Shown here: positions 15,848 through 62,110 of the stretch, one piece after another
Numbering within the stretch: position 1 is the first letter of the stretch
How the letters are laid out: each line of letters begins with the position of its first letter
NCBI GenBank assembly: GCA_050012755.1
Contig: JBEKGO010000002.1
Coordinates: forward strand, 1-64,000
Direction of reading: 5' to 3'
DNA length: 64,000 nt
From: Candidatus Bathyarchaeia archaeon
GTDB taxonomy: Archaea; Thermoproteota; Bathyarchaeia; Bathyarchaeales; Bathycorpusculaceae
The notes under the pieces: model-generated
Databases searched by the model: none
The model's input: only the letters and a program-made list of their open reading frames with translations
What the model was told of the DNA's origin: nothing
Made by a program: the position numbers and the translations under genes

Positions 15848-16126
15848 TTAGCCAGGTTGAAGCGTAATTTCCATCATATAACCTTTGAGATCAGGCACAA
15901 ATTGCTTCAACGAAGCCACAATTAATGCAGGAACTGTTATGCGGCCATCTTTTCGCATTTTAGCCAAAAAACTTTCGCGAACTCCAATCATGTTTACAAG
16001 TTCGATTTCGACGTTTAGAGTCTGAGATATTTCAAGTTTGTATTGCCAGCGAACTATAGTTGGAACTTGAAAACGATTGCCCTTTTGAAGTTGAATTTTG
16101 AAACGAGCAGTTTCAGTTAATGGCAA
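15848..16126 (-). CDS. Tandem AbrB/SpoVT-domain DNA-binding protein (MraZ-like architecture); TTG start at 16126
   Basis: Two swapped-hairpin-like repeats, LQKGNRFQVPTIVRWQYKL and MRKDGRITVPALIV; RBS GGAGG upstream. Confidence 0.7.
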   Translation of the reverse strand: MPLTETARFKIQLQKGNRFQVPTIVRWQYKLEISQTLNVEIELVNMIGVRESFLAKMRKDGRITVPALIVASLKQFVPDLKGYMMEITLQPG

Positions 16127-16138
16127 CAAGACCCTCCA

Positions 16139-16239
16139 GGGACTTTTCAGGACTTTTTGGGACGAATCTAGACGCAACCTGCAAACAATTTAAGCTTTGT
16201 TACAAAAAAGCGACCTAAAACACAAAGAAAAAAATTTGC
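16139..16239 (-). repeat. Dispersed cassette copy 1: 66-bp core (16174..16239) plus about four 10-bp repeats
   Basis: Core GCAACCTGCAAACAATTTAAGCTT...AAAACACAAAGAAAAAAATTTGC; GAC recurs at 16141, 16151, 16161, 16171. Confidence 0.88.
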
Positions 16240-16265
16240 ACCAAAATTTGCAAATCATCAACAGC

Positions 16266-16772
16266 TTACACAATGTATTTTCCTGTTTTCTCAAAATTCT
16301 TAACAATTTTCATAACACGTTTACGCGTATAAAACGGTTCAAGCGGAATATCTTTCAAAAGAACCCAAGGACTTTTGCGAGCCACCACTGTTGCAACGTG
16401 TTGGTCCCCAAAGCATTTTGTAGCAACTTCGACAACTTCCCGTCTGACTCCTGCCTCTGAAAGCTCACCGAGTGCATGCAAGTACTCATGTAGCAGGAGA
16501 TTGTAAGTTAAGGCGTTCACTGTAGGTTTGGAACTGATTGATTGCTCAACAATGTCGACGAGTGACCGGTTTAAGACAATGTTGTTGGTTCCAACCGGGT
16601 AGTAGGCGCCAAGTTGCAGAGGCAAATCATCGAGAAAAAGCATCATTGCAGCTCTTCTTTTGGCTTGAGCAAACTCGACAGTGTCCTTTACGATTTGCCA
16701 GACTTCAGCGTAGTTTTTAGCATTATCTAACCGATTACTGAACTGCTCAGCGGCTTCAGAATCATTGCTCAA
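16266..16772 (-). CDS. Conserved hypothetical protein with HExxH (zincin-like) motif
   Basis: GAYYPVGTNNIVLN...LLHEYLHALG...E. Confidence 0.75.
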   Translation of the reverse strand: MSNDSEAAEQFSNRLDNAKNYAEVWQIVKDTVEFAQAKRRAAMMLFLDDLPLQLGAYYPVGTNNIVLNRSLVDIVEQSISSKPTVNALTYNLLLHEYLHALGELSEAGVRREVVEVATKCFGDQHVATVVARKSPWVLLKDIPLEPFYTRKRVMKIVKNFEKTGKYIV

Positions 16773-16898
16773 AAAGTATCCCGCTCTCTAAAAAGAATAA
16801 AATAAACCTGCCTTTAAGTTTTGCACATGCAGAGGCTAAATAAACAAAAAATTGATAAATGACAAGTGTGTTTTCATAGACGTTAAGGTGAAAATTGA

Positions 16899-17321
16899 AT
16901 GGCAAGCAATGTTCTCGTGAGAGACATAATGTCCAAGGATGTAAAAACAGTTCGCAACGATACAACAGTGAAAGAAGTTATCGCTTTAATGAACAAATTC
17001 GACAAAGATGCAATACTTGTCGAGCAAAGCGGAAAACCAACCGGAATCATTACAGTCAAAGATGTTTTGGTGAGAGCAGTTGAACATGGTGTTCCCCTAA
17101 ACACAATTATAGCAAGAATGGTCTACACAAACCCATTGGTAGTGATAGATGAATCAGCAACCGTTGAAGAAGCAGCTAAACTGATGAAACATTGGCAAAT
17201 AAAGCATTTACCAATCGTTGACAAAAACGGCGCCCTCGTAGGCATGGTAAATGATAGAGACATAGTCTACGCAGTTCCGTCATTAATGTCAACAATGGAA
17301 GAATTCTGTCGCACAAAGTAA
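16899..17321 (+). CDS. CBS-domain pair protein
   Basis: VRDIMSKDV...GIITVKD; EEAAKLM...IKHLPIVD...GMVNDRDI. Confidence 0.9.
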   Translation: MASNVLVRDIMSKDVKTVRNDTTVKEVIALMNKFDKDAILVEQSGKPTGIITVKDVLVRAVEHGVPLNTIIARMVYTNPLVVIDESATVEEAAKLMKHWQIKHLPIVDKNGALVGMVNDRDIVYAVPSLMSTMEEFCRTK

Positions 17322-17401
17322 AAAGCGATAAACTAATTTTTTTATTTATTTCAATATCAAAATCAAACGTGAGTTTTAGAAAAAAGGGTAAAGAAAAATA
17401 C

Positions 17402-17731
17402 CTATGCTTTTTGCTCTTTGGCCCATTCTTCTTTAACAAGCTTTGTAATATTGTCTAAGTTTGGCTGCGCGGTGAGATCGGAGATAACCCAATTCAACTC
17501 GTTCTTAATTAACAAAGCGATTTCTCCTGGTCTTAGAGGTTCTGGCCGGGTAGATTGATAAACTCTCAAAGCACGTAAACAGAACTTTACCATTACATTG
17601 TTGAGTTCATTTCGCAAATCTCCCAGTTCATCTTTACTCTCTTTCATTAATTTGCTGAAACCTTTTGAATCCCAATTTCCTTTTTCTTCCATTTTTCTCT
17701 CAATCCTTACCGTTTCATGTAAATCATGCAT
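17402..17731 (-). CDS. Hypothetical protein downstream of pyrG
   Basis: Charged helical ORF co-oriented with pyrG; exact start uncertain. Confidence 0.6.
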   Translation of the reverse strand: MHDLHETVRIERKMEEKGNWDSKGFSKLMKESKDELGDLRNELNNVMVKFCLRALRVYQSTRPEPLRPGEIALLIKNELNWVISDLTAQPNLDNITKLVKEEWAKEQKA

Positions 17732-17754
17732 TATAGCCTTTTCTAATGATTTCC

Positions 17755-19383
17755 CTAAGGCACAAAAACCTTGGGTTTTCCAAGCTTTTTGTTAAGGCAC
17801 GCTTGTATAAACCCAAAGTATTCAGGCGATGGTCGTCCAGGTCTGCTTTTGAATTCTCCATGAAATTGTGATGCAAAAAAGAAGTAATTCATAGGCAAAT
17901 CTAAAGTTTCCATTCTTCTGCCATCAGAACTTTTGCCAGTGAAGCATAAACCGTTATTCTTGAGGATTTCCGAATAATCCAAGTTAACTTCGAAGCGGTG
18001 ACGGTGGCGCTCATAAATTTCCTCTTGACCCCACAAATGGTAGGCGAGCGAGCCTTTTTGCAAAACAATTTTGTGTGCACCTAAACGCATTGTTGCGCCT
18101 TTGAGTTCTATTCCACGTTGCTCAGGCATAAGGTCTATAACTGGATAGGGTGTTTCAGGGTTAATCTCGGTGCTATTTGCATCTTTTAAGCCGCAGACAT
18201 TTCGGGAGAATTCAATTACAGCCAATTGGAAGCCATAGCAGATACCTAAGAAGGGTAAGTCATTTTCTCGGGCAAATTTGGTGGCGGCGATTTTGCCTTC
18301 TGTTCCTCGCGGGCCAAAGCCGTATGGAACAAAAACTCCGTCGAAATTTGCGAGGTCTTTTATGCATTCAGGTTCATGTTCAAGTTTTTCGGCTTCAAGG
18401 TATGAAATGCAGACTTTGGCGTTGTTTGCAGCGCCGCCATGGCGTAGTGCCTCGGTCATGCTTACGTAACTATCGGTTAACCCAGCGTATTTGCCTACCA
18501 GAGCTATTTTGACTTCATGTTCTGGGTGGACAGCGGCTTCAACATATTGTTGCCAAGAACCGAAGTCTTTGCCATCACATTTGAATTGGAGTCGTTGGCA
18601 GATAAAGTCGCCCATGCCCTGTTTATCCAAGATAAGAGGTACTTGATAAACAGAATCGGCATTGTAAGAGCAGAAGACGGCGCTCTCTGGGATGGTGCCG
18701 AACAGCGCGATTTTTCTAAGGGCTTCAGCATCAATCATTTTGGGGCTTCTAGCCACTATAGTATCAGGTTGAACACCGATACCACGAAGTTCGTTGACGC
18801 TGTGTTGTAGAGGCTTAGTTTTCATTTCACTAGTGACATCTAAAATAGGCACCAAAGCCACATGTACATAAAGCGTATTTTCATAACCTTCTTCTAAACG
18901 CATTTGGCGTATAGCCTCGAGAAATGGTAAACCTTCGATGTCGCCGACCGTTCCGCCGACCTCAGTCAGAACTACGTCGGCACATGTGACTTTTCCGACG
19001 CTTTTAATGCGGTTTTTGATTTCGTTAGTTATATGGGGGACAATTTGGACACAGCGGCCTAAAAAATCTCCTCGCCGTTCTTTTTCAATAACTGCTTTGT
19101 ACACCATACCAGTGGTTAAGTTGTTTTCTTGCTTGAGGCTTAAATCCAAGAAGCGTTCATACCAGCCCAAGTCTAAGTCGGTTTCCCCGCCATCGTCGGT
19201 CACAAAGACTTCACCATGCATATATGGATTCATTGTACCCGCATCAACGTTCACATAAGGATCGATTTTCACAACTGTTGGTTTTATCCCTCGCGCCTGA
19301 AGCATTTTACCGATGGAAGAAGTTAATATGCCCTTTCCGACGGAACTTAACACACCACCCGTAACGAAAATGTACTTAACCAT
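17755..19383 (-). CDS. pyrG: CTP synthase
   Basis: MVKYIFVTGGVLSSVGKG, DPYVNVDAGTMNP, GICYGFQ, ERHRHRFE, QFHGEF. Confidence 0.97.
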   Translation of the reverse strand: MVKYIFVTGGVLSSVGKGILTSSIGKMLQARGIKPTVVKIDPYVNVDAGTMNPYMHGEVFVTDDGGETDLDLGWYERFLDLSLKQENNLTTGMVYKAVIEKERRGDFLGRCVQIVPHITNEIKNRIKSVGKVTCADVVLTEVGGTVGDIEGLPFLEAIRQMRLEEGYENTLYVHVALVPILDVTSEMKTKPLQHSVNELRGIGVQPDTIVARSPKMIDAEALRKIALFGTIPESAVFCSYNADSVYQVPLILDKQGMGDFICQRLQFKCDGKDFGSWQQYVEAAVHPEHEVKIALVGKYAGLTDSYVSMTEALRHGGAANNAKVCISYLEAEKLEHEPECIKDLANFDGVFVPYGFGPRGTEGKIAATKFARENDLPFLGICYGFQLAVIEFSRNVCGLKDANSTEINPETPYPVIDLMPEQRGIELKGATMRLGAHKIVLQKGSLAYHLWGQEEIYERHRHRFEVNLDYSEILKNNGLCFTGKSSDGRRMETLDLPMNYFFFASQFHGEFKSRPGRPSPEYFGFIQACLNKKLGKPKVFVP

Positions 19384-19696
19384 GGATCTCCCTGCAATTA
19401 ACCTACACCTTTCAAACTGTGTTAATATAACTCTTTTGTGTGCATAGCTGTAAAAATGTGCAATTATAAAGGAACTTTTTGAACAAAAGAAAGATGTGTT
19501 GCCGCAAGGGTATTCTGCATCAAAATATCGATGACGACTCTTACGCCAATTTTTGTGCAATAAACCAATCTAATTTCATCAGTAATTGCTTTTAGACTGA
19601 TATGGCTGATAAAATCTCGGTACTTGAATTTTGTATTGGGTGCCTTGGAGAAAAATTTTAATTCATTGTTTACTTAGTTATGTGTGGAGACAAAAA

Positions 19697-19930
19697 ATGC
19701 CCAGAGCATTTGTATTAATAAACGTTGAATCAGGAGCAGAACAAGAAGTTGTTAACGAACTGAAAAAAATTGAAGGCGTTGAAGAAGCCTACTTTTCATA
19801 TGGTGTTTACGACATAATCACAAAGATAAAAGCTGACTCAATGGAAAGACTCAAGGACTTGGTAACTCGAAAGGTTAGAACTATAAGCAGGGTTCGATCA
19901 ACCTTGACATTGATAATGATGGAAGAATAA
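19697..19930 (+). CDS. Stand-alone Lrp/AsnC ligand-binding (RAM) domain protein
   Basis: MPRAFVLINVESG...GVEEAY..YGVYDII...RSTLTLI. Confidence 0.9.
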   Translation: MPRAFVLINVESGAEQEVVNELKKIEGVEEAYFSYGVYDIITKIKADSMERLKDLVTRKVRTISRVRSTLTLIMMEE

Positions 19931-19960
19931 AACGATAGATCTCTATCGTTCCCTATTTTT
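19931..19960 (+). terminator. Hairpin plus T-tract directly after the stop codon
   Basis: AACGATAGA-TC-TCTATCGTT followed by CCCTATTTTT. Confidence 0.4.
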
Positions 19961-20146
19961 GTTTCATGAATACAGGTGTATCCTAGGTTTACCGGTGGCA
20001 CTTGTCTTAATTGTTATTGCGATTGTGTTTGTGGCTTTGTACTAGAGTAGCGGAAAAAAGAAATTGGCGACAAAAAGCTGATTCAATGTTTTGTATATGC
20101 TTAATAGTTTAAGTGTCAAGGATTAATCAAGGCTTGAAAAGTTACA

Positions 20147-21205
20147 ATGAACAATACAAAAAGACCCGCACATGTAAATGCTATTTTCGCAATTTTAATT
20201 CTTGGATTAATCGCCTTCATTCTTTATCTATACTTCTACGTTAATCCCGCAGATGTCATAAATATACTCTCTAGAACAAATCTCTACTACTACACAGGTG
20301 CCTTTGCGGCTTATTTTATTTGTACTTTCTTCTCTTCTCTGGTTTGGCGCAACTTGCTGAACAATCTATCAGTAAAAATAAGCGTGCGAAAAGTTCTCCT
20401 GTTCACGTGGGTTGGATTATTTTTTGATGCAACAGTTCCCCAGTTGGGATGGTCTGGAGAAATATCAAAAACTTACATGTTAACTAAAGACACAGATTAT
20501 GATACTGGGAAAGTGGCATCTTCTGTGGTTGGACAAAAGATTTTTGTTATAACAATCACTGATGTTGCTCTAACCCTCGGTCTAGCATTAGTACTGAATA
20601 GTTATCCCTTGCCATTCATTGTTACCTTCTTCATCGCCCTAGTATTAGCTCTTTCAGTTTTGTCCCTAATGCTCATTTATTATGTCAGCCTTAAGCCGAA
20701 GGCAACAAAAACATTGTTAACCTGGGGAATAAGAATAGTTTCATTTTTTAGGAAAAAATGGGACCCAAAAGAATTTAGCCTCAGAGCAGAGGAAGTTTTG
20801 GGTAAATTTCATTCAGGCATAAAAGAGCTGAAGGCTAATCCTAAAGCCCTAGTTAAACCAATAATATATGCCATTACAAGTTTTATTTTCGAAGTTTCAG
20901 TCATATTTTTGACTTTTGTGGCGCTGGGTTATCCGGTTCCCGTTGATAAAGTGCTTATTGTTTTCACTTTAACTGGAACGCTTCAGACGGTTGGAGTAAC
21001 GTTTTTTGGTTTTCCTGAGTTAATTATGAGTGTTTCATTTACTGCTCTTGGGATTCCTGCGGCGCTGAGTGTTTCCGTTACGTTGCTAACTAGAGTTGTG
21101 ACTTTATGGTTTAGGCTAATTATTTCTTATGCTGCTCTACAATGGGCAGGAATAAAAATTATGCAAAGAAAACAAAACATCGGTTCTGACAATTTACCAA
21201 AATGA
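20147..21205 (+). CDS. UPF0104 / lysylphosphatidylglycerol-synthase-TM flippase-like membrane protein
   Basis: Multi-TM; WRNLL, VGLFFD-TVP..SGE, TLLTRVVTLW pattern. Confidence 0.8.
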   Translation: MNNTKRPAHVNAIFAILILGLIAFILYLYFYVNPADVINILSRTNLYYYTGAFAAYFICTFFSSLVWRNLLNNLSVKISVRKVLLFTWVGLFFDATVPQLGWSGEISKTYMLTKDTDYDTGKVASSVVGQKIFVITITDVALTLGLALVLNSYPLPFIVTFFIALVLALSVLSLMLIYYVSLKPKATKTLLTWGIRIVSFFRKKWDPKEFSLRAEEVLGKFHSGIKELKANPKALVKPIIYAITSFIFEVSVIFLTFVALGYPVPVDKVLIVFTLTGTLQTVGVTFFGFPELIMSVSFTALGIPAALSVSVTLLTRVVTLWFRLIISYAALQWAGIKIMQRKQNIGSDNLPK

Positions 21206-21297
21206 GTTTTAAACGATAATTCAAGCACTGTCTTGCAATGCGTCTAGGAAACTTTTTAATGCACTGTAAACTTATCAATTCTTAGAGAATGATTGAT

Positions 21298-21534
21298 ATG
21301 CCCACAGCCTTTGTTCTAATTAATACCGAAATAGGTTCAGAATCAGATGTTTTAAAGGCGGTAAAAGGAGTTGAAGGTGTAGAAGAAGCTTCAGCCGTTT
21401 ACGGAGTCTACGACATAGTCGCAAGAGTCAAAGCTGACACAATGGATAAGCTAAAAGAAATAGTGACATGGCGCATTCGAAAACTCGACAAAGTACGGTC
21501 AACATTGACAATGATCGTTGTTGAGGAACGATAA
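21298..21534 (+). CDS. Stand-alone Lrp/AsnC RAM domain protein
   Basis: MPTAFVLINTEIG...YGVYDIV...VRSTLTMIV. Confidence 0.9.
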   Translation: MPTAFVLINTEIGSESDVLKAVKGVEGVEEASAVYGVYDIVARVKADTMDKLKEIVTWRIRKLDKVRSTLTMIVVEER

Positions 21535-21959
21535 CATACTCATTTAAACTTTTTTTTCTTTTACTTATGTCACCTCAAACAGACACCAAATCTATTGCCC
21601 ATAAAATTTTAGTGTACAATCTTGAATTATTAGCCAGTTTTTCAGTTGAAGCATTATTTTAGTAAGCGCTAAGTTGTGACTGCCGACATACAGTCACATA
21701 ATTTTAAATTTTATACAATTGATTTAAAAGTCCCATGCATTTGGAGCAGTGAAGGAAGACTTGCAAATCTTCAATAATATTTCAGGAAGAAGCCACAGAA
21801 TAATAGTATACTTCACTGTAAGCAGATGCATGCAATTTTTTATTGGTTTGATGAAGAGGTTTGGATACACCCAAGAAGCCTTTTTCGTTCCCTTGAACAA
21901 AAAAGCACATCCAAACCTCTGAGACCCAAAACATAAAAATCGATTGGAGATTAACAAAA

Positions 21960-22247
21960 ATGCCCACAGCGTATGTACTCTTAAATACGGAAATTGGAGC
22001 TGAAAACCAAGTACTGAAAGCACTAAAGAAAATTGAAGGCGTTGAAGAAGCACACAACCTATGGGGAATTTACGACATAATTGCAAACATAAAAGCTGAA
22101 AACATGGAAAAACTCAAACTTATTGTCACCAAAAAAATTTCGAAAATTGCTAAAATAAATTCAAAACTTACTATGATAATAGATGAAAAACCATCCTCTG
22201 CATTGCAAGAACAAGTTTTTTCTAAATCAAACCCCCTTATTACATAA
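21960..22247 (+). CDS. Stand-alone Lrp/AsnC RAM domain protein
   Basis: MPTAYVLLNTEIG...WGIYDII... Confidence 0.88.
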   Translation: MPTAYVLLNTEIGAENQVLKALKKIEGVEEAHNLWGIYDIIANIKAENMEKLKLIVTKKISKIAKINSKLTMIIDEKPSSALQEQVFSKSNPLIT

Positions 22248-22334
22248 TTAAACCTCTATTTTTTGGGTATAAAAACAATATTTTTTTTACTCTCGCAGAT
22301 TATTCTTTATTTTACATCGGAGAATAAGCTAGCT

Positions 22335-23913: not shown

Positions 23914-24678
23914 TTAGCTTTTGATTTTCCGGCTCGTTCTTCTCTTTGCAATGATGACCCCCGCCAAGACTACAACCACAGAAACAACTAACGTAATTCC
24001 AAGTAGCTGACTCGAAAACTCAGGAACTGTAGGCGAAGAATTTATTGTTGGTGTTGTCGTAGGAGCTAATGTGGGGGTAGCGGTAGGTGCGACAGTGGGA
24101 ACGGCAGTAGGAACGGCAGTAGGAACTGCAGTTGGAGTTGCAGTAGGTGCTGGTGTTGGGGTAGGAGCTGGAGTGGGAGTTGGAGTAGGAGTTGGAGTAG
24201 GAGTTGGTGTGGGTGTTGCTGTCGGAGCTGGAGTAGGTGATGGAGTGGGAGTTGGAGCGCTTCCGACGCTAAAGGTTGTTGAGTTTGATGCTAACTGCTG
24301 ACCGCTTGAAGCTGCAACTGCCAAAAGCGAGTAGGTTCCAGCTGGTCCAGTTGGGTCACTGAAACTTGTGTTGTATGTTCCCGATGCTCCCGTAAAGAAG
24401 ATGTTACTATAGGCGAGGTTGCTGGCTGAGTCGTAAACGATAACACTAACAAGAATGTTTGGTTGTGGGACCCCATTGTTTGTTAAGTTGCCTGTAATGG
24501 TAATCAAATCGCCTACTTGGTAGTTTATTTTGTCGCTGGTTGTTGTTAAGTTCCATCCTGAAGCTGCAGTGACGGCTGGTATGATAATTGCCAGAGTAAG
24601 AGCCAAAAGGAGGACCGCACAGAGCACAGTTTTTAGTATTAATTGAGGGTTAAAGGGGGCAGCCTGTTTTGGTTTCAT
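23914..24678 (-). CDS. Secreted Ig-like protein with Pro/Thr linker and VPEF C-terminal sorting signal
   Basis: Signal peptide; [10 protein letters not shown] Ig-like domain; PT repeats; VPEF + TM + KRR tail. Confidence 0.85.
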
Positions 24679-24843: not shown

Positions 24844-27645
24844 TTGAAGCAGTTTGCAGAGGAAGATTATGTTCTTCCATTCTTTAAGCAAGAAGGTTTT
24901 GTTAGAAAGCATTGTCCAAAATGTGGAGAATACTATTGGACACAAAATGAGAAACAGGAAACATGCGGCGAATCAACTTCTGACGAATGCGGATGTTACA
25001 CCTTCATAAACAATCCAGCAACAAAGAAAAGTTTCAACCTTCCCGAGATGAGAGAGGCTTTCCTCTCGTTTTTCGAGAAAGAAGGACATACGCGAATCAA
25101 ACCTTACCCTGTTGTGGCAAGGTGGCGCAAAGACATTTACCTAACTCACGCCAGCATAATTGATTTTCAACCATACGTAACCGAAGGCATCGCCCCTCCA
25201 CCAGCGAACCCGCTGGTGATTTCACAGCCATCCATCAGACTAACCGACATTTCTAATACAGGCCCCACTTTTGGCAGGCACCTCACCATTTTCGAGATGG
25301 GTGGAGCACACGCATTCAATTATCCAGACAAAGAAATTTACTGGAAAGATGACACTGTCCGTTTCCACCAACGGTTTGCAACTGAAGCTTTAGGCATAAA
25401 GTCAGATGAGATTATTTACAAGGAGGGCGTGTGGGTTGGTGGAGGTAACGCTGGACCTGATGTGGAATGCATTGTTCGTGGCTTGGAAGTCGGCACTTTA
25501 GTTTTCATGCAGTATAAGGTAGTTGGTGAAGAATTCGTTGAGTTGCCCATTCGCACGGTTGACACGGGTTACGGAATTGACCGTTTCACGTGGATCAGCC
25601 AAGGTGTTCCAAGCTTATTCCAAGCGATTTACGGAAAGATGCTGAATAAAATCTATGCAATGGCGGGAATAACCAATGTTGATGACGATTTCTTGTCCCT
25701 TGTGGCGAAGTATTCTGGGTTGGTCAGCGTTGACAAAAACGCGAATAGAATGGTTACTCGCAAGCGAGTAGCTGAACTTACAGGATTAGATTTGCAAACT
25801 CTCGAGAAGGTGTTGGTTCCCATTGAAAACGCTTGGGCAGTGACTGATCATACCAAAACCTTAAGCTTCATTCTTTCCGAAGGAGTTGTTCCATCAAACA
25901 TTCAAGAAGGCTATTTGGCAAGATTGCTGTTCCGCAGGGTTTACCGCTTAATGCGAACCCTAAACATGGAACCAGAACAACTTTACGACATCATAGATAT
26001 GCAAGTTGCTTTATGGTCAAAAGATTTTCCTCGCATTAAAGAAATGCAAAAGGAAATTGTTGAAATGCTTAGAGTTGAGGAAGAAAAGTTCAAAGACACA
26101 TTAGCCCGCGGAGAAGGCATGGTTAAACGAATAGCTAACGACCTGAAAGCAAAAGGAACAGGAAAATTGCCCATGGACACACTAACAGAACTGTACGATT
26201 CACATGGGCTTCCACCAGAAATTGTGAAGCAGGCAGCAGAGAAGGAAGGCGTGCAAGTGGAGATGCCTGAGAACTTTTACGCTTTAATCGCTAAACGGCA
26301 CATGCAAGCATCTAAACCAGCTGAAGAGGAAGAAACTCAAGCAGAAAAAAGCTTGGAAAAAACAGCTGAGACACTGCCTGCAACGGAACAACTGTATTAT
26401 GCAGACACTTACATGAAAGAGTTTGATGCTAAAGTTCTCAAAGTAATCAACGAAAAGTATGTTGTTTTGGACAGGACATGTTTCTACCCCGAAGGCGGTG
26501 GCCAACCTGCAGACCATGGATGGCTAAAAGCTGGCACGTCAAAATTCGATGTAGATGACACCCAAAAAATCGGCAAAGTCATAGTCCACAAACTTGGCTC
26601 TTCACCGACATTTAAGGAAGGCAGCGTTGTTCACGGCATTCTTGACTGGGACAGACGCTACTCACTGATGAAAGCGCATACTGTTACCCATTTGATTAAT
26701 GGAGCTGCAAGAAGGGTTTTAGGCGAGCATGTTTGGCAATCAGGCACGCAAAAGGGCTTGGAAACATCGCGGCTTGACATTTCTCATTATAAAAGATTGA
26801 GCCCTGAAGAAATTCACAAGATTGAGCGGCTGGCGAACGGTGCGATTGCTGCTAACATGAAAGTTGAGATAAAGTGGTATCCACGTAATGAAGCGGAATC
26901 ACGCTACGGATTCAGACTTTACCAAGGCGGCGCTGTTCCAGGCAAAGACATCCGCGTTGTGAAGACCGGAGATTGGGATGTAGAAGCGTGTGCTGGAACC
27001 CATTTAGGAAACACTTTGGAGGTTGGCTTTGTAAAAATCGTTTACACTGAACGCGTGCAGGATGGAGTTGAACGTTTAGGATATGCTGTTGGATCAGAAG
27101 CGTTGAAGGCAGTGCAGAAACAGGAAAGTCTGCTCTGGAACGTCTCAGAAGTTCTGACTTCCCCAATCGATAAGTTAGACAAAACTGCAGAAAAAATCGT
27201 CAAAGAACTAAGAGAAGCTAATGTTGAGAAACGTAAACTGATCAAGGAACTGGCTGAAAAGGAAAGCTCTACGGGGCAGGCAAAAAAGAACGAGGCAACA
27301 GTAGAATTTGGAGGCATATCAATTGTTAAACGGGATTTCGGAGAAGCTATTGACATTAACCGTATGTTACAAACCGCATCTGAAATCATAAAACGAAATG
27401 ACGCAGCCGTTACGTTGTTTTATGGATCAGATGGAAAATCCTGCAGACTTATGATTATGGCTGGAGAAACATCTGTTCAGAAAGGTGTTAATGCTGGAAA
27501 CATTATGAAGGAAGTTGCGCCGATTTTCGGTGGCGGAGGCGGCGGACGACCCAACTTTGCACAGGGTGGCGGAACAAAACCTGACAAACTACGAGAAGCT
27601 CTAGAAGCAGCAGAAGACACAGTTAAGAAACAGGTAAAACTCTAA
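24844..27645 (+). CDS. alaS: Alanine--tRNA ligase (archaeal type)
   Basis: YPVVARWR, GRHLTIFEMG, DTGYG, FYPEGGGQPAD, HTVTH, ACAGTH, GGGGGRPNFAQGGG. Confidence 0.97.
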   Translation: MKQFAEEDYVLPFFKQEGFVRKHCPKCGEYYWTQNEKQETCGESTSDECGCYTFINNPATKKSFNLPEMREAFLSFFEKEGHTRIKPYPVVARWRKDIYLTHASIIDFQPYVTEGIAPPPANPLVISQPSIRLTDISNTGPTFGRHLTIFEMGGAHAFNYPDKEIYWKDDTVRFHQRFATEALGIKSDEIIYKEGVWVGGGNAGPDVECIVRGLEVGTLVFMQYKVVGEEFVELPIRTVDTGYGIDRFTWISQGVPSLFQAIYGKMLNKIYAMAGITNVDDDFLSLVAKYSGLVSVDKNANRMVTRKRVAELTGLDLQTLEKVLVPIENAWAVTDHTKTLSFILSEGVVPSNIQEGYLARLLFRRVYRLMRTLNMEPEQLYDIIDMQVALWSKDFPRIKEMQKEIVEMLRVEEEKFKDTLARGEGMVKRIANDLKAKGTGKLPMDTLTELYDSHGLPPEIVKQAAEKEGVQVEMPENFYALIAKRHMQASKPAEEEETQAEKSLEKTAETLPATEQLYYADTYMKEFDAKVLKVINEKYVVLDRTCFYPEGGGQPADHGWLKAGTSKFDVDDTQKIGKVIVHKLGSSPTFKEGSVVHGILDWDRRYSLMKAHTVTHLINGAARRVLGEHVWQSGTQKGLETSRLDISHYKRLSPEEIHKIERLANGAIAANMKVEIKWYPRNEAESRYGFRLYQGGAVPGKDIRVVKTGDWDVEACAGTHLGNTLEVGFVKIVYTERVQDGVERLGYAVGSEALKAVQKQESLLWNVSEVLTSPIDKLDKTAEKIVKELREANVEKRKLIKELAEKESSTGQAKKNEATVEFGGISIVKRDFGEAIDINRMLQTASEIIKRNDAAVTLFYGSDGKSCRLMIMAGETSVQKGVNAGNIMKEVAPIFGGGGGGRPNFAQGGGTKPDKLREALEAAEDTVKKQVKL

Positions 27646-32160: not shown

Positions 32161-32308
32161 CCTTTTCAAACCTTTTTTGTACTTTTTGGACCTTTTTGGT
32201 ACGTTTCAAACCTTTCCTAACCTTTTCCAACCTTTTTGGTACGCAGCCTGCAAAGAATTCAAATCTTGAACTGAAAAAGCAACCCAAAACACAAAGAAAA
32301 AAATTTGC
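32161..32308 (-). repeat. Dispersed cassette copy 2: eight 10-bp repeats (32161..32240) plus 66-bp core (32243..32308)
   Basis: CCTTTTCAAA/CCTTTTTTGT/ACTTTTTGGA/CCTTTTTGGT..., then GCAGCCTGCAAAG...CAAAACACAAAGAAAAAAATTTGC. Confidence 0.88.
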
Positions 32309-37353: not shown

Positions 37354-37645
37354 CGAGCATCAACCATTTCCAATTAATACTTATTTTCAAACCTAAATGC
37401 CTATCGTTTCAAGTTATTCTTCACAATTTAGAAAATGATTAATGAAAAAACGGTGAAGTTTGGGTTTTACAGAAAAAAAATATTAAGCATGATTTTTCAG
37501 CCTGTGGTGTACGTGTGGCTACTATAGGCACTTCTGTGTACTTGCTTGTACTTTGAAGCACCTCTGTTTACGCGGTCTCCAAACAAGTCAGCTTAGACTC
37601 AGAAAACCAACTTAAAGCAAGCTGAAAAAAATGCTGTCCAAAACT

Positions 37646-37745
37646 GACCTTTTTAGACCTTTCCGAACCTTTTTAAACCGCAACCTGCAAAAGATTTAAG
37701 CTTAAAAGCAAAAAAGCAAACCAAAACACAAAGAACAAAATTTGC
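37646..37745 (-). repeat. Dispersed cassette copy 3: three 10-bp repeats plus 66-bp core (37680..37745)
   Basis: GACCTTTTTA/GACCTTTCCG/AACCTTTTTA, then GCAACCTGCAAAAGATTTAAGCTT...CAAAACACAAAGAACAAAATTTGC. Confidence 0.88.
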
Positions 37746-50295: not shown

Positions 50296-50324
50296 GCACC
50301 CAAAACACAAAGGACAAAAACTGC
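50296..50324 (-). repeat. Degenerate partial copy of the dispersed cassette core
   Basis: GCACCCAAAACACAAAGGACAAAAACTGC matches the distal half of the core; no decamer array. Confidence 0.55.
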
Positions 50325-50479
50325 AAAATTTAAATCCGCATCTTCAACTATCATCGCATTCAAGAGGAACATTTATCGAAGCAAGATTAATGTAAACTGA
50401 TGAACACAAAATATAAATTTTTATAGTAACAGCGCCAATTTAACAAGCAAGATGCGCCTATCTTGGTGTCAACTTCATT

Positions 50480-51732: not shown

Positions 51733-51738
51733 AAAAGA

Positions 51739-54149: not shown

Positions 54150-54200
54150 GAACTTTTATTTCCTGACAATCAAATGCTCTTTCGAGGGCGAGACGCTAAG

Positions 54201-55936: not shown

Positions 55937-56685
55937 ATAAACCAGCGCAGTTGTTGATCCTCTTTCTTCTTTTCTTCTGTTATGCTTCTGATAATTCCAA
56001 ATGATTCTAAGGTCTTTTTAATTTCGACCCCGCTTTCTTCTAACTTGGATTGGTCAACATTAAGGTTCAAGTATTTGTCGAGCAAATTCAAGGCGTATCT
56101 TGCAGCGTTTACGTCAGGATTCATTCCGAGAGTATCTACAAGAAGCGAGAAACCTTTCATATCCCTGATTCTTGCCAGCCCAATAGATAAGCCAGCGATG
56201 CCGAAAACATGTCCAACCATCACCTTGGTTCCCAGATCCAGAGCTTCTTGCATTGTATCCAAATCAGTGGCAGTGCTGTAAATTGCAGGTACAGGCTGTG
56301 CCTCGTCTTTTTTGAAGCCACCGATAGAAATTACGAAGCGGGAGCCAAACTGTTGTGCTAAATCAAGAACTTTACCAACCAATTCATATTGCCCCACAGT
56401 TGTCAACGCTTGTGTGTTTCCGAACCAAATAATTAAGTCGCGTGCGCTATCTCTTCGCTTAACATAATATAGTTCATTTATAGGTGTAAGTGCTCCCCCA
56501 TCTCCTGTTGTGACGGCAAAATCTTGGAATGACGAAGAAAAAATCTGCACAAATTTTTTGGCTTTAAGCTCTTTTATCAAATGCAGTGTCGCGATGTTAG
56601 CTACAAATCCTATGCCTGGCAACCCTTCAATGAGGATTGGGTCGTTCAGTTTTGGTTTTTCAATTATATCAATAGAGCAAACCAT
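55933..56685 (-). CDS. PAC2-family proteasome assembly chaperone
   Basis: LIEGLPGIGFVANIA, GNTQ, ISIGGF, GIAGL, PDVNAA. Confidence 0.88.
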   Translation of the reverse strand: MVCSIDIIEKPKLNDPILIEGLPGIGFVANIATLHLIKELKAKKFVQIFSSSFQDFAVTTGDGGALTPINELYYVKRRDSARDLIIWFGNTQALTTVGQYELVGKVLDLAQQFGSRFVISIGGFKKDEAQPVPAIYSTATDLDTMQEALDLGTKVMVGHVFGIAGLSIGLARIRDMKGFSLLVDTLGMNPDVNAARYALNLLDKYLNLNVDQSKLEESGVEIKKTLESFGIIRSITEEKKKEDQQLRWFI

Positions 56686-56946
56686 TGTTGCGCATCTCTC
56701 TTCGTTATTAGACAAACTATGGTGATATAAGCATGCCTAATCTAATTGGGACTTATGTTTAGGCTGTCGCCTGCTTAAGATTTTATAGAGTAAGCATCAA
56801 GCGAACAGCATTATCAATCAAGAGGCTTTTTCGGGGGTAGAATCCCGAGTGACTTAGCCAAAAATAAATCCTGTGCTTGCTCTGGTTGTCTATCTTTTTT
56901 TAAACTTTTTTATAATCGAGCAGCCCATCATGTTTAGGTTTCAGCG

Positions 56947-58572
56947 TTGAGTTTCGAAATCAAAGAAAAGGACTTACTTGGCAGAATAGGCAAACTAAAA
57001 ACTAAAAGCGGAACAGTGGAAACTCCCCTTTTATACCCTGTAATTAACCCCAGTATCCAGCTAGTTAACCCAAGAAAGCTTAAGGAAAACTTCGGTTTTG
57101 AAGCAATAATAACGAACGCTTACATACTCAATAAACGCTATGGCGACAAAGTGGTCAACGAAGGTTTGCATAAATTTTTGGATTTCGATGGAGCTGTAAT
57201 GACTGATTCAGGAGCTTACCAAATCCTTGTTTATGGCGAAGTAGAAGTCAGCCAAAAAGAAATCGTTGCTTACCAAGAAGCCATCGGCAGTGACATTGCC
57301 ACAATGCTAGACATTCCAACAGGGTGGAAAGTAACTAAAGAACAAGCCCAAGAAACCGTGGCTGAAACATTAAAACGAGCTAAGGCTTTCTTCAAAATCA
57401 AAACACGCGATGATATTTTATGGGTTGGACCAGTACAAGGCGGAAGACACCTAGACCTCGTTGCCAGTTCAGCTCTCGAAATGGGAAAATTGCCTTTCCA
57501 AATCCACGCGCTCGGAAGCCCAACTGAAGTTATGGAAAGCTACCGCTATGACGTGTTAGCCGACATGATATTAACCGCTAAAAAAGGCTTGCCTATTGAG
57601 CGCCCACTGCATTTGTTTGGCGCTGGGCACCCAGCCATGTTTTCGCTTGCAGTGGCTTTGGGCTGTGACCTTTTTGACTCAGCAGCTTATGTTTTGTATG
57701 CTCGAGAAAACCGTTACATGACTGAAAACGGCACATGGCGACTACACGAGCTAGATCATTTTCCATGTTCGTGCCCTAGATGCTCATCTGAAACGCCAAG
57801 AGGGCTTGAACAGAAACCAAAAAAGGAACAAGAGATTTTCTTAGCTGAACATAATCTTTATGTTTGCGTTGCGGAGATGCGACGAGTTAAGCAGGCTATA
57901 AAGGACGGCAGATTGTGGGAGCACACAGAAATGCGAGTTCACGGGCATCCAGCGTTGCTCTCTGCGCTCAAAAAACTTCGAAATCATGTTGATTTTCTTG
58001 AAAAGCACAGTCCAATAGTAAAGAGTAGTGGTTTCTTCTACTTTGGTTCTGAAGGACTTGCACGCCCCGAAATCACACATTACCGCAAACGTTTAACTGA
58101 ACGGTATGACCCGCCCAGCAACGCGAAAGTTCTGTTTCTTGTACCTCAGACACGAAATAAGCCGTTTCATAAAGCACCTGAATTCAAAAAGATTCGCCAG
58201 CTTTTCCGCAGTTTAGGCGAAAACTTTGCGTCAAAAATCCATGTCTGCGTTTACTGTGCCCCATTTGGCGTGATTCCATTGGAACTTGATGAGACTTATC
58301 CGTTGAGCCAGCATGAAGCCGCTTTGCCAATCGACTTAGAAACTGTGGATTATGTTGCAAATCAAACTCAAGAATATATTGTACGTTCGGCTTACGTGAG
58401 TGTTGTCTTGCTTAATGATGCTAAACTTTGGCAAGACACAGTTGAAAAGGCCTGCAAATCAGCGTGTAGGGCGAAGGGTTTAGCGTTTGACTGCGTTGGT
58501 GTCGATGTGAAAGAAAGCAAAGAGATTTTAGCTCGTTTAGAGAAGATTTTTCGGAAACATCTGAGTGAATAA
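56947..58572 (+). CDS. tgtA: Archaeosine tRNA-guanine(15) transglycosylase
   Basis: MTDSGAYQ, LDIPT, PVQGG, PLHLFGAGHP, DLFDSAAY, PCSCPRC, AEHNL. Confidence 0.95.
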   Translation: MSFEIKEKDLLGRIGKLKTKSGTVETPLLYPVINPSIQLVNPRKLKENFGFEAIITNAYILNKRYGDKVVNEGLHKFLDFDGAVMTDSGAYQILVYGEVEVSQKEIVAYQEAIGSDIATMLDIPTGWKVTKEQAQETVAETLKRAKAFFKIKTRDDILWVGPVQGGRHLDLVASSALEMGKLPFQIHALGSPTEVMESYRYDVLADMILTAKKGLPIERPLHLFGAGHPAMFSLAVALGCDLFDSAAYVLYARENRYMTENGTWRLHELDHFPCSCPRCSSETPRGLEQKPKKEQEIFLAEHNLYVCVAEMRRVKQAIKDGRLWEHTEMRVHGHPALLSALKKLRNHVDFLEKHSPIVKSSGFFYFGSEGLARPEITHYRKRLTERYDPPSNAKVLFLVPQTRNKPFHKAPEFKKIRQLFRSLGENFASKIHVCVYCAPFGVIPLELDETYPLSQHEAALPIDLETVDYVANQTQEYIVRSAYVSVVLLNDAKLWQDTVEKACKSACRAKGLAFDCVGVDVKESKEILARLEKIFRKHLSE

Positions 58573-58574
58573 CG

Positions 58575-59168
58575 TTGATTCAGGCAGACCTTCATATTCA
58601 CACAGTTTACTCTTCTGACTCGCTTATCCAACCTAAAAGTTTGGTTGACATGCTTGTAGCGCACAGTTTCATTAAGGTTGCAGCCGTAACTGATCATGAC
58701 AACGTCCGCGGTTGCAGAGCAACGGTTGAGTTGGCTGCTGCTTACCCTGATGTCCTGATTATCCCAGGCGTAGAAATCAGCACGACAGAGGGGGACATAT
58801 TGATTTTGGGGGCTGAGGAGTTGCCGCCTAAGCCTTGGACAGCAGAGACAGTGGTTGATTACGCAAAAAACATAGACGCCGTCACCATTGTGGCTCATCC
58901 TTTCCGCGAATATGGCATGGGAGAGTCAGCAAGAAAATATAATGTCGACGCGATTGAGGTCCTCAACGGCAACTCATCAACAGCAGCCAATAATGAAGCG
59001 AAAGCGCTTGCCAAAAGCATGGGTTTGCCCGGCACAGCCGGCAGCGACGCGCACCAAGTTTCAGAGCTGTTTAGCGTCAACGCAAAAATCGAAGCAAATT
59101 TGAATGTTGAATCGGTGTTAAAGGCAATTAAGAAGGGTTCCATATCTACGCAAGTAACAAAAGGATAA
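58575..59168 (+). CDS. PHP-domain phosphoesterase
   Basis: DLHIHTVYS, TDHD, GVEIST, AHPFR, GSDAH. Confidence 0.92.
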   Translation: MIQADLHIHTVYSSDSLIQPKSLVDMLVAHSFIKVAAVTDHDNVRGCRATVELAAAYPDVLIIPGVEISTTEGDILILGAEELPPKPWTAETVVDYAKNIDAVTIVAHPFREYGMGESARKYNVDAIEVLNGNSSTAANNEAKALAKSMGLPGTAGSDAHQVSELFSVNAKIEANLNVESVLKAIKKGSISTQVTKG

Positions 59169-59232
59169 ATATCTTTTTAAAACACCTGCGTTAATTTTTA
59201 ATCGTCAAAGGTTAACATTAGGATTGGTCTGA

Positions 59233-60489
59233 TTGCAGGTTGGATTTTTAGGCGGAGCTAGAGAAGTTGGCAGAATTGGCATAACTGTTAAGTCTCAAAA
59301 AAGTAAAGTTGTGCTAGATTACGGAGTCATGCTTGATCATGAACCTGGTTTCCCAATGCATGTTCCACCCAAAGAGTTAGATGCGGTTATTCTAACTCAC
59401 AGCCACCTTGACCATTCAGGAGCCATCCCAATCTTTTACATAAACGACAAAAAACCATTAATCACAAACAAACTAAATTTGGAATTAACTCAGGTTCTAA
59501 TTCAAGATTTTATTCATTTATCAAGTTACTATTTGCCTTTTGAGTATCTTGAACTTAACACAATGATGCATAACAGTAGACACATAGATTTTGGTGTAGA
59601 AGAAACCGTCGGCGATATGAAAATTAAACTGTTTGATGCAGGACATACCCCTGGAAGCGCTCAGGTGCAAGTTGAAGCAGATGGCAAAAAAATTCTCTTC
59701 ACTGGCGACTACAACATGGAAGATAGTAAAATGTTAAAAGGCGCCACAATGGATTACGGCGATTTCGACGCTGTTATTACAGAGAGCACTTATGCAAGTG
59801 AAGATCATACCTTGCGACCTGAACTCGAAAAAAGTTTTGTTGAAGCAGCAACCGAGGTAGTTGAGCGTGGTGGAACTGTTCTGGTTCCAGCGTTTGGTGT
59901 GGGGCGGGCGCAGGAGATTGCTTGCGTTTTGTCGGCAAACCATTTTGAATACCCAGTGGTTTTGGATGGTATGGCTCGGGAAGCTAGCCGAATAATGATG
60001 AATTACAAAGAGTTCCTGAGAGACCCCAAGCTCTTCATGAATGCCATGCACTCATTGGATTGGGTTGATGGCTGGAGAGATCGACGCAGAGCAGCTAGGG
60101 ATCCAGGCGTTGTTATTTCACCCGCAGGCATGTTGAAAGGTGGTCCATCACAATTTTATGTTTCAAAAATAGCCAAGAAGGCAACTAACGCAATTTTCCT
60201 GGTTAGTTATCAGATTCCTGGTACACCCGGCAAACAATTAATGGACACGGGTGTTACCCTGGTTGATGGAAAAGTGCGTAAGGTCAAGTCGCAGTATCGA
60301 CATTTCGATTTCTCCTCTCATTGTGGAGCAAGCCAACTCAAAGAAGGCTTACGACGCCTCGGAGGGAAACCAAAAGTATTCTGCGTTCACGGTGCAGAAG
60401 GCAACTGTGAATTGTTTGCGAATTGGGCAAAAACCGAGCTTGGATTAGATGCGGTAGCTCCTAGAACTGGTGAAACTTTCGAAATTTAG
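59233..60489 (+). CDS. Beta-CASP metallo-beta-lactamase ribonuclease (aCPSF2-like)
   Basis: GGAREVGR, THSHLDHSG, AGHTPGS, TGD, ESTY, FSSH, VHG. Confidence 0.9.
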   Translation: MQVGFLGGAREVGRIGITVKSQKSKVVLDYGVMLDHEPGFPMHVPPKELDAVILTHSHLDHSGAIPIFYINDKKPLITNKLNLELTQVLIQDFIHLSSYYLPFEYLELNTMMHNSRHIDFGVEETVGDMKIKLFDAGHTPGSAQVQVEADGKKILFTGDYNMEDSKMLKGATMDYGDFDAVITESTYASEDHTLRPELEKSFVEAATEVVERGGTVLVPAFGVGRAQEIACVLSANHFEYPVVLDGMAREASRIMMNYKEFLRDPKLFMNAMHSLDWVDGWRDRRRAARDPGVVISPAGMLKGGPSQFYVSKIAKKATNAIFLVSYQIPGTPGKQLMDTGVTLVDGKVRKVKSQYRHFDFSSHCGASQLKEGLRRLGGKPKVFCVHGAEGNCELFANWAKTELGLDAVAPRTGETFEI

Positions 60490-60498
60490 GCTATTTGC

Positions 60499-61050
60499 AT
60501 GAAAATAGGTATTTTGTCTGTCGGCCAATTAGCTCCTGACGCGTTGGTTAACCTTAAGCAAGAGTTAGTTAAAATTCTTCCTGACACCGACTGCACAACG
60601 ATTAAAGATTCTTTTCCTGTTCCAAAGCAAGCTTTTGACAAGAAACGTAGCCAATATAATTCAAGCATTATACTTGACGATCTGAGAGTTTTCATAGTTA
60701 AAAAACCCCAGTATCATCGTGTTTTGGGTGTAATTGATGCTGACATCTTTGCTTCTGGCTTGAATTATGTGTTTGGTGAAGCTTATGTTTCTGGAAGGGC
60801 TGCTTTGATTTCGCTCTGGAGACTTAAACCCCAGTTCTATCGTGAAAACGTCAACATAACTGTCTTTGTCTCAAGGATGGTGAAGGAAGCTGTGCATGAG
60901 TTGGGGCACACTTTGGGTCTTCAACATTGCTCGCGGAGTTTCTGTGTTATGCATTTTTCAAATTCTATTTTTGATACAGATAAAAAGCAAAGCTTATTGT
61001 GTGACCAATGTTATTTGCAAACGGCTTTAGCTATTAGCAATTTAGGGTAA
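60499..61050 (+). CDS. amzA: Archaemetzincin zinc protease
   Basis: LNYVFGEA, KEAVHELGHTLGLQHC..CVMHFSNS...CDQC. Confidence 0.92.
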   Translation: MKIGILSVGQLAPDALVNLKQELVKILPDTDCTTIKDSFPVPKQAFDKKRSQYNSSIILDDLRVFIVKKPQYHRVLGVIDADIFASGLNYVFGEAYVSGRAALISLWRLKPQFYRENVNITVFVSRMVKEAVHELGHTLGLQHCSRSFCVMHFSNSIFDTDKKQSLLCDQCYLQTALAISNLG

Positions 61051-61056
61051 GCAACC

Positions 61057-61914
61057 TTGACCGAGCAAAAGAAAGAGGATAAATTCAAATTTCAAATTGT
61101 TTATTTGATTCCGATACTAGCAAGCTTAGTTTTTGGTTTAGGCTGCGCTTACTTGCTAGTGCCGCAGTCGAGTACAAGTATTCCAGTCACACCTATTCCC
61201 GACAACACTCCTGCAGGACCTTTCGGCAACGCTTTGTACTTTGTAGTTCTTGTAGCTGTAAGTGCAACGTTGTTCTATGTCCTTCTGAAGCGGAAAAGCA
61301 AAAAAATCATCAAAACACTAATTGTGGTTGCAATGACCGTTGCTGCTTTGCTTTTGTCTCTGGTTTATTTGTCAACTGTATTCTCTTTTTTCCCAAATTG
61401 GAGCATCCTTCTAATTCCCTTGTCGATAGTAATTGCGGTGCTGTTTGATCTTGCAATTTTCCGTTTCGGTAACATTTCCAGAAACGTGGCGGTAGTTTGT
61501 GTTGGAGGGGCTTTGGGTGTTTTCTTTGGTAAATTTATTCCATTGTACAGTGCAGTCGTGATTTTGGCATTCCTTGCAATCTATGATGTATTTGCGGTTT
61601 ATCGAGGTCCAGTCGGAAAAATTGCTCAATCATCAGGGCTTGACGAACTTCAAGGTTTAAGCTTCTCTTTCAAAGACATTCAGATGGGACTTGGCGACTT
61701 AGTTTTCTATTCAATGCTGACTGGCGCCATATTCTTCTATTTCAGCATGAGTATTCTGCCAACAATAGTTGCGATCATTGGCATCTTAGCAGGCTCAATC
61801 ATAACCTTTTTCATGCTTGAACGAAAAGGCATCTTCCCAGGCTTACCCTTTCCCATCATGTTGGGTTTAGCAGGCGGCTTAATTACCGGGTTTTTGATAC
61901 TTCCCCTTTTGTAG
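61057..61914 (+). CDS. Presenilin/signal-peptide-peptidase-family intramembrane aspartyl protease
   Basis: AIYDVFAV, MGLGDLVFYS, PGLP. Confidence 0.9.
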   Translation: MTEQKKEDKFKFQIVYLIPILASLVFGLGCAYLLVPQSSTSIPVTPIPDNTPAGPFGNALYFVVLVAVSATLFYVLLKRKSKKIIKTLIVVAMTVAALLLSLVYLSTVFSFFPNWSILLIPLSIVIAVLFDLAIFRFGNISRNVAVVCVGGALGVFFGKFIPLYSAVVILAFLAIYDVFAVYRGPVGKIAQSSGLDELQGLSFSFKDIQMGLGDLVFYSMLTGAIFFYFSMSILPTIVAIIGILAGSIITFFMLERKGIFPGLPFPIMLGLAGGLITGFLILPLL

Positions 61915-61948
61915 TTACATCATATCTAGGATTAATGAGCAGTTTTGT

Positions 61949-62110
61949 GCAAATTTTGTTCTTTGTGCTTTGGGTTGCTTTCTTTAAGCAAAGCTTAAAT
62001 TGTTTGTAGGTTGCGTCTAGATTCGTCCCGTTTCGTCCCAATTCGTCCCGTTTCGTCTTGATTCGTCCCAAAAAGTCCCAAAATGTCCCGAAAACTCCCA
62101 GAAAGTCTTA
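61949..62110 (+). repeat. Dispersed cassette copy 4: 66-bp core (61949..62014) plus about ten 10-bp repeats (62011..62110)
   Basis: ATTCGTCCCG/TTTCGTCCCA/ATTCGTCCCG/TTTCGTCTTG/ATTCGTCCCA/AAAAGTCCCA... Confidence 0.9.

Follow-up and report, generated by a model that had tools for sequence, protein, structure and literature searches.

A promoter and decamer-array cassette dispersed through a Bathyarchaeia genome, probably derived from the autoregulatory region of a small MraZ-like barrel protein

A 64,000-nucleotide stretch of DNA (the window) was analysed, from contig 2 of the 2.41-Mb, 65-contig genome of a Candidatus Bathyarchaeia archaeon (GCA_050012755.1, labelled G000). It carries four complete copies of an intergenic cassette consisting of a 66-bp core and an adjoining array of 10-bp direct repeats (decamers), and at one copy the array leads directly into the gene of a 92-amino-acid protein. 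The cassette is probably an MraZ-like autoregulated promoter–operator of an order-specific family of such genes, multiplied as an insertion-polymorphic repeat. Core copies were counted genome-wide using a two-round nhmmer profile of the 66-bp core at a cut-off of E≤1e-3, and 127 were found in the G000 genome. Among the 123 copies with enough flank to be tested, 96 had at least three decamers strictly in phase with the core boundary, compared with 12 of 2000 random positions. The original prediction, made from the window, had described the cassette there and proposed that it had spread through the genome; the observation is real and understated, only part of the genome-wide set having been seen, and the spread is borne out by the 127 cores and by presence or absence varying between species.

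The cassette features of the window, including the core with its B recognition element/TATA (BRE/TATA) string, are given by position, strand and content.

15848..16126, minus strand: gene of the 92-amino-acid, predicted single-chain swapped-hairpin (PhS018-/MraZ-like) protein, with TTG start at 16124-16126
16133..16137, minus strand: ribosome-binding site GGAGG, 6 nt 5′ of the TTG, read directly (CCTCC on the plus strand)
16139..16173, minus strand: decamer array of cassette a, the proposed operator, 3.5 units of GTCCC class (transcribed strand)
16174..16239, minus strand: core of gene-linked cassette a, with T-rich upstream block, TTGGGTTGCTTTTTTG-type block, BRE/TATA string AAGCTTAAAT (16188-16197), then TGTTTGCAGGTTGC
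32164..32308, minus strand: gene-less cassette b, array 32164-32242 (8 units) and core 32243-32308, between two convergent gene ends
37505..37634, minus strand: probable decayed second unit beside cassette c, GTAC-class decamers and then a core-like stretch, found by eye and below the profile cut-off of E≤1e-3
37647..37745, minus strand: gene-less cassette c, array 37647-37679 and core 37680-37745, from repeat and profile matches
50298..50325, plus strand: decayed core fragment of 28 nt, 82% identity, without array and below the profile cut-off of E≤1e-3
61949..62110, plus strand: gene-less cassette d, core 61949-62014 with TATA string at 61991-62000, then array 62015-62110 (about 9.5 GTCCC-class units)

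Pairwise and profile matches placed the four full cores where they had been claimed, at 16174-16239 (+), 32243-32308 (+), 37680-37745 (+) and 61949-62014 (−), the signs here following the claim and being opposite to the transcribed strand listed above; profile E-values ranged from 3.7e-14 to 5.5e-13. The most alike cores were those of 16159-16245 and 61943-62029, 89% complementary over 87 nt, and the remaining pairs agreed at 78–82% over 68–73 nt. Arrays adjoin each full core on the same side with a variable number of units, as had been stated, according to Tandem Repeats Finder (16139-16163, 2.5 copies; 32164-32243, 8 units; 37647-37679, 3.3; 62020-62107, about 9.5) and inspection by eye, by which the array of cassette a has 3.5 units and reaches 16173. 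The order of core, array, GGAGG, TTG and 92-amino-acid open reading frame (ORF) at 16.1 kb had been read correctly, and so had the BRE/TATA-like string, which is present in three cores and upstream of a trmI-like gene (3794-3803) and is degenerate in the 32.2-kb copy. The partial fifth copy survives as the 28-nt core fragment at 50298-50325, but it has no array and the profile misses it. Just upstream of cassette a, at 16240-16262 (minus strand), a small hairpin (TTTGCA, 8 nt, TGCAAA) followed by T7 was observed; it lies at the 3′ end of a 168-amino-acid gene (16266-16772) and has a terminator-like look.

Wherever the 5′ end of the gene was visible, it was linked to a cassette. The G000 genome has eight gene copies, four complete and four cut by contig ends, and the order of core, array, GGAGG and start codon was found in all six with a visible 5′ end, the other two being truncated at a contig edge. 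Within the genus and counting G000, 36 of 61 genomes carry the gene; a single genome has as many as 11 matches, and many of the matches contain stop codons. Upstream regions were compared for 72 full-length copies from genus and related genomes, an array being scored as at least three periodic units at a threshold of 6/10, lowered to 5/10 if none was found; a periodic array was present upstream of 71 of them, the exception (locus L138) having none. In copies from the order's other families the core's upstream half can no longer be recognized, and a TATA-like string, about 20 bp, decamers and the start codon are still kept. This retention of the array order despite turnover of the core sequence is the main argument that the array functions in the gene. 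A GGAG-type string stood at the corresponding place before many, not all, of 30 related loci. Two loci differ in layout: L210 (G055:C6:214130-215090; loop LQNRNN) has, in place of decamers, a perfect hexamer array (CCCGTT, about 14 copies), a period-6 exception, and at G012:C1:7626-10973 (L128, L188) three gene copies recur at a regular spacing of 1539 bp, which suggests a tandemly repeated 1.5-kb unit.

The reverse expectation, that the AbrB-type gene would follow the cassette genome-wide, failed: only 6–8 of the 127 cassettes carry it and about 120 are gene-less. Two of the gene-less copies (C32:16952 and C16:51490) retain a decayed N-terminus of the gene, its first 12 to 14 codons, 3′ of the array, and at least some gene-less copies therefore arise by gene loss. 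The neighbours of the paralogues (NikR, a CBS protein and others) differ at every locus and give no dcw context; no toxin gene adjoins the four complete loci and no partner nucleoside triphosphatase (NTPase) gene lies beside any paralogue.

The gene family was present in six of 301 sampled genomes of the phylum (G000 included), all within the order of the window. A search of a protein collection returned 582 clusters of the family at E≤1e-3, all unnamed or automatically labelled 'AbrB/PrlF antitoxin', and no description of the cassette or of the protein family in Bathyarchaeia was found among the open-access papers searched. An exact 20-nt core motif matched 86 DNA stretches in a set of species-representative genomes; among the matches listed (80 of the 86), nearly all were from Bathyarchaeota/Bathyarchaeia metagenome-assembled genomes from peat and soil, and about ten were chance bacterial matches. 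In IMG/VR, seven contigs were matched by the 20-nt pattern and none by the core profile; these were judged chance matches and a viral origin was rejected.

Array statistics were obtained from 92 arrays with 584 units, almost all without a gene. Position 1 of the decamer (transcribed strand) was G in 94% of units across all classes, position 2 was T in 74%, position 3 was C in 58% or A in 22%, and the spacer was A-rich. Agreement with the consensus of the same array was 98, 92 and 94% at box positions 1–3 and 66–79% at positions 4–10. A 3-nt box kept at each helical turn with a free spacer is the trace that would be expected of a protein reading one face of the DNA, and the contrast of box and spacer is unlike the neutral decay of slipped repeats. 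Because gene-less arrays still keep their boxes, they most likely remain binding sites, either as extra operators or as titration sites.

The 92-amino-acid protein gave no Pfam family at E≤0.1. Neither it nor its homologues matched PF04014 (SpoVT/AbrB/MazE), and the MraZ Pfam domain had no match at E≤1 in any of the 26 homologues that make up the protein alignment A1. When solved structures were searched with the A1 profile, the sole match was PhS018 of Pyrococcus horikoshii (2GLW; hmmsearch E 5.9e-4, residues 8-72). An AlphaFold2 model of the protein (mean predicted local distance difference test score, pLDDT, 90.4) showed two duplicated beta-beta-alpha-beta halves, and Foldseek again ranked 2GLW first (template-modelling score, TM, 0.72; probability 1.0; E 6.2e-5; 93 columns), followed by Mycoplasma MraZ chains including the promoter complexes of 2026 (probability 0.93–0.99, TM 0.45–0.51). 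As modelled, the protein is a single-chain swapped-hairpin barrel; among solved folds PhS018 comes nearest and MraZ next. By sequence the protein lies outside the MraZ family. The description of the gene as MraZ-like and tandem-AbrB thus stands for the two-repeat swapped-hairpin barrel, which recalls the 2GLW and MraZ folds, and falls for family membership, there being no MraZ Pfam match and no dcw context. PhS018 is likewise 92 amino acids long and a single-chain barrel with internal duplication, but it shares 17% identity and belongs to another phylum. Its structure has been available since 2006, and the part of the source drawn on here lists it as uncharacterized and only predicted to bind DNA (PMC4333400). 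AbrB/SpoVT/MazE/VapB proteins share the swapped-hairpin fold and are small autoregulators that bind their own promoter, as is putatively the case here; they are homodimers of single halves, whereas both halves here are in one chain, and they differ also in that PF04014 is not matched and no toxin gene adjoins the four complete loci.

The window contains the string AAGCTTAAAT four times, in three cores and at 3794-3803, against a mean of 0.57 in shuffled sequence, and none of 100 shuffles reached four. Outside cassettes it occurs 17 times in the genome, 11 times in intergenic DNA, and eight of these 11 lie 19–43 bp upstream of a start on the same strand; it is therefore an ordinary BRE/TATA promoter string of the host. 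In the cassette it ends 14 bp before the first decamer, and given the spacing usual in archaea between TATA box and start, transcription is predicted to begin in the first decamer. The earlier proposal of a start inside the array is supported to that extent, by a host promoter motif with a geometry that would place the start there. In the trmI-like promoter (3794-3830), AAGCTTAAAT is followed by GGTACAACCTGCA, and ACAACCTGCA there agrees at 9 of 10 positions with the reverse complement of TGCAGGTTGC, the stretch that comes after this TATA string in the cassette.

On the G/T-rich strand, a cassette consists of a T-rich block, a conserved upstream block and the BRE/TATA string (either AAGCTTAAAT or one of its variants); after about 14 bp come from 3 to more than 10 decamers (G-T-C/A-N-N and an A-rich spacer), and then GGAGG and the start codon. 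In the proposed mechanism, transcription would start in the first decamer. One barrel would bind each box at each helical turn, along one face of the DNA, and an occupied array would block initiation and so give autorepression, as shown for MraZ. The near-invariant second hairpin loop of the barrel (D60 in 64, G61 in 72 and R62 in 70 of 72 proteins) would read the invariant G of the box, and the variable first loop (residues 16-18), in which residue 16 is the most variable loop column of the 72 proteins, would read the class-specific bases. The unit as a whole undergoes turnover by insertion and loss.

One of the closest known systems is bacterial MraZ, the regulator of the dcw operon (PDB 1N0E, 9QLG, 9R4J, 9SZ7). 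The sections of the MraZ report used here describe GTG(G/T) boxes with 6-nt spacers and a transcription start within the first box, each box being bound by one subunit and read by K13, R15 and R86 (PMC12957436). Both systems have two swapped-hairpin halves in one chain and a gene directly behind its own promoter, and, going by those sections, both have direct-repeat boxes with a 10-bp period and a box of 3–4 nt plus spacer; the start in the first box is here predicted, and in MraZ the subunit reads the box through basic loop residues. The differences are that there is no Pfam match here and the Foldseek TM is only 0.45–0.51; that MraZ has about 140–150 amino acids with oligomerization helices, in contrast to 92 without them; that MraZ stands in a bacterial dcw context, and this archaeal gene in none; that MraZ has 3–4 boxes, and the arrays here have from 3 to more than 10, belonging to many classes; and that here the gene is multi-copy and the operator has proliferated without it.

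Loop type goes with box type across the 72 protein–array pairs, in the following combinations of residues 16-18 and box.

Loop G-N-R: box GTC (22/28)
Loop H-N-R: box GGTA or GATA
Loop Q/K-x-R: box GTA
Loop R-x-L: box TGTG
Loop F-x-K: box CGAC
Loop x-x-T: box GCGT or GCGC
Loop C-x-K: box GTCAA

The association suggests a recognition code, with the reservation on ancestry given with the points below.

Several observations weigh against the autoregulated promoter–operator as the source and function of the repeat. In a tree built without the loop columns, the loop groups were mostly clades, and a test of independent pairs retained only two pairs on supported branches, so the association of loop and box is inseparable from shared ancestry. 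Box classes outnumber the resident paralogues, GCAAA, GACAT and GTAAG having no linked gene in the assembly. The 92-amino-acid protein is without the extra helices that MraZ uses to oligomerize. When 125 cores were classed by TATA string, a AAGCTTAAAT-type string was found in only 36, a TTTAGGG-type variant, which also precedes intact genes, in 59, and neither in 30, and many gene-less copies may therefore not be promoters. Lastly, the array side points to the start of a gene in 40 cases and to the end of one in 28; this near-random orientation of the cassettes towards their neighbours argues against a simple regulon of downstream genes, which was rejected because, in addition, no second gene family was found to recur behind the arrays.

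Orthologous loci were compared as the original prediction had suggested, and empty sites were found at b, c and d in relatives. The orthologue of cassette a has the same neighbour in G020 (77% protein identity), with an array of about 6–9 units compared with 3.5. Site b is empty by sequence in G020, G015 and G004 and by flank spacing in G018, G046 and G052, and in G055 it is taken by a complete, gene-bearing cassette of opposite orientation. Judged by flank spacing, site c lacks the cassette in G055 and G063, and no core was matched at the G020 locus. Site d is empty in G020, G055 and G075, and in G063 it is occupied by a gene-less cassette of a different box class in the opposite orientation. 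The three gene-less copies of the window are thus absent at the orthologous sites of most close relatives compared, and the cassette appears to be insertion-polymorphic between species; sites b to d would reflect either gains made independently at favoured intergenic positions or a rapid loss. In comparing filled with empty sites, the intergenic DNA was too diverged to place junctions or target-site duplications. Exact-motif counts within the genus were very uneven, with 90 in G000 and 38, 22, 22 and 10 in four other genomes, the remaining genomes having mostly 0–3 matches, which is the level of the reversed-pattern control.

Copies are also unevenly placed within the G000 genome. The small contigs C31-C65 hold 68 copies in 0.53 Mb and C1-C30 hold 59 in 1.88 Mb, about a fourfold higher density on the small ones, and many core copies lie at contig ends. 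Four cassette-rich contigs carry PIN, MazE-type and PemK toxin–antitoxin genes together with small helix-turn-helix (HTH) regulators, and their 78 ORFs gave no match to a transposase or integrase/recombinase family. Contig C33 has, at about 10–28 kb, 17 cassettes in 28 kb among PIN, MazE-type and PemK pairs and small HTH regulators, and this region looks like a variable island. At the contig ends C46:1-39, C60:10417-10455, C55:82-144 and C61:81-144 a near-identical core and flank are followed by an ACAC-class array; the block common to these ends is a recent duplication that breaks the assembly.

Patchy copy number in the genus, empty sites in close relatives, enrichment on small toxin–antitoxin-rich contigs, stop codons in many gene copies with stubs in some gene-less ones, and near-random orientation towards neighbouring genes would all be accounted for if cassette and gene were a small mobile or duplicative unit whose roughly 120 gene-less copies are non-functional debris with no binding role, the boxes being conserved through young age, slippage or gene conversion. 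We consider this unlikely. Within arrays it is the spacer and not the 3-nt box that carries the mismatches, which neutral decay would not give, and the cores, which are old, have diverged to identities of about 0.61 to 0.93 with their closest relative (mostly 0.7–0.8), yet their arrays are still phased. The same 78 ORFs without a transposase or integrase family speak against it too, and so does the structure of the ends: no inverted pair of at least 9 nt was found in three of the four window copies, the fourth having one low-complexity pair. The earlier alternative of a mobile-unit remnant therefore keeps its spread and insertion polymorphism and loses, in those three copies, the terminal inverted repeats of an insertion sequence (IS) or a MITE (miniature inverted-repeat transposable element).

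Traits of a MITE are nonetheless present, the cassette being short, non-coding, multi-copy and variable in presence between genomes. In the part of its description considered here (PMC4596501), the BrickBuilt MITE of Porphyromonas gingivalis is likewise dispersed, strictly intergenic and confined to one lineage; its leader and tail are conserved, a variable-number tandem repeat lies inside it, and it has promoter activity (here predicted). By the same partial account, the repeat of BrickBuilt is 23 nt long and its ends are small inverted repeats, in contrast to the 10-bp period and the lack of such ends in three of four window copies; here, moreover, the repeat sequence differs between copies and a subset carries a cognate gene. 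Putative mobile promoters and Correia, ERIC and REPIN elements also have promoter-bearing sequence reused away from its original gene, as far as the portion of PMC3575422 covered here describes them; unlike these, the cassette includes an operator-like array, has an identifiable source gene family and stacks head-to-tail.

The stacking is regular. The 127 cores fall at 74 loci (40 single, 22 double, 7 triple, 3 quadruple and 2 quintuple), and all 34 multi-copy clusters are head-to-tail, with mixed orientation in none; within a cluster, every array leads into the T-rich 5′ block of the following core. An origin of the clusters by local tandem duplication was ruled out, as in 0 of 125 cores did the closest relative lie inside the same cluster and neighbours were no more alike than other pairs (mean similarity 0.563 for 67 neighbour pairs and 0.584 for 7683 other pairs). 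Clusters therefore grow as unrelated cassettes come to lie head-to-tail beside one another. A speculative route is excision of a one-unit circle between direct cores and re-entry at another core, which would always give the same orientation. In contig C34, after the last array of the four-unit cluster at 25844-26455, a stretch resembling a transfer RNA gene was seen on the opposite strand, by eye only.

The predicted start at the first decamer, and the T-rich block that follows each array in the 34 head-to-tail clusters, would also fit a small-RNA gene, the gene-less unit being the promoter of a short GUCNNAAAAA-repeat RNA ended by the T-runs of the next core, with the protein binding RNA or being unrelated. 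This reading is very unlikely. The cassettes had no match at the gathering score in Rfam 15, the sole match in the window being an eL15 leader; four stretches folded no better than their shuffles (z −1.04 to +1.10); many gene-less copies have no good TATA string; and the 10-bp phase, A-tract spacers and 3-nt box would suggest recognition of double-stranded DNA at intervals of one helical turn. On the same Rfam and folding results a structured RNA or attC-like hairpin was rejected. An integron cassette array was rejected as well, with no foldable attC-type site and no integrase among the 78 ORFs, head-to-tail stacking being the sole resemblance.

Proteins that coat centromere-like repeat sites are known, such as ParR on parC and omega on heptad arrays, and type Ib/II partition sites consist of short direct repeats over a promoter, bound by a small autoregulator encoded alongside. 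The cassette has the layout typical of such partition sites, its arrays are many and dispersed with clusters of up to five units, and phased A-rich spacers with G-T-C every 10 bp should curve the DNA. The arrays might accordingly be protein-coated centromere-like or nucleoid-organizing sites, or intrinsically bent or histone-positioning DNA with no dedicated protein. To this architectural role we assign little probability: the neighbours of the paralogues differ at each locus with no partner NTPase gene beside any of them, and the sites are not conserved between close species, a poor fit to an essential chromosome function.

If the cassette is the autoregulated promoter–operator of the 92-amino-acid family, a function can be proposed for the orphan PhS018-type fold, namely sequence-specific binding to phased decamers over its own start, in what appears to be an archaeal analogue of the way in which MraZ recognizes promoters. 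A broader interpretation is possible but doubtful: that the cassette is a new archaeal genetic unit, in which a regulator travels with its own promoter and modular operator, the box co-evolves with one hairpin loop, cassettes with or without the gene are stacked head-to-tail in selected intergenic positions through an orientation-specific mechanism that involves no recognizable transposase or integrase, and more than 100 landing pads rewire or buffer transcription. Were this true, the family would amount to a naturally occurring collection of DNA readers whose specificities are simple and readable (a box of 3–5 nt per turn). The 72 natural protein–operator pairs with differing boxes are material for a recognition code. 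As a high-copy repeat of Bathyarchaeia that ends many contigs and is enriched on small ones, the cassette is also a practical cause of broken assemblies.

Two further kinds of feature were recorded in the window. Tandem repeats unrelated to the cassette lie at 6706-7091, 24014-24279 and 10636-11628, with periods of 12 bp (GTTGGA-type) and 120 bp. The Rfam match mentioned above, to the eL15-Euryarchaeota ribosomal-protein leader, lies at 63651-63700 in this Bathyarchaeia genome and scores 42.6 bits, compared with a gathering score of 33.7.

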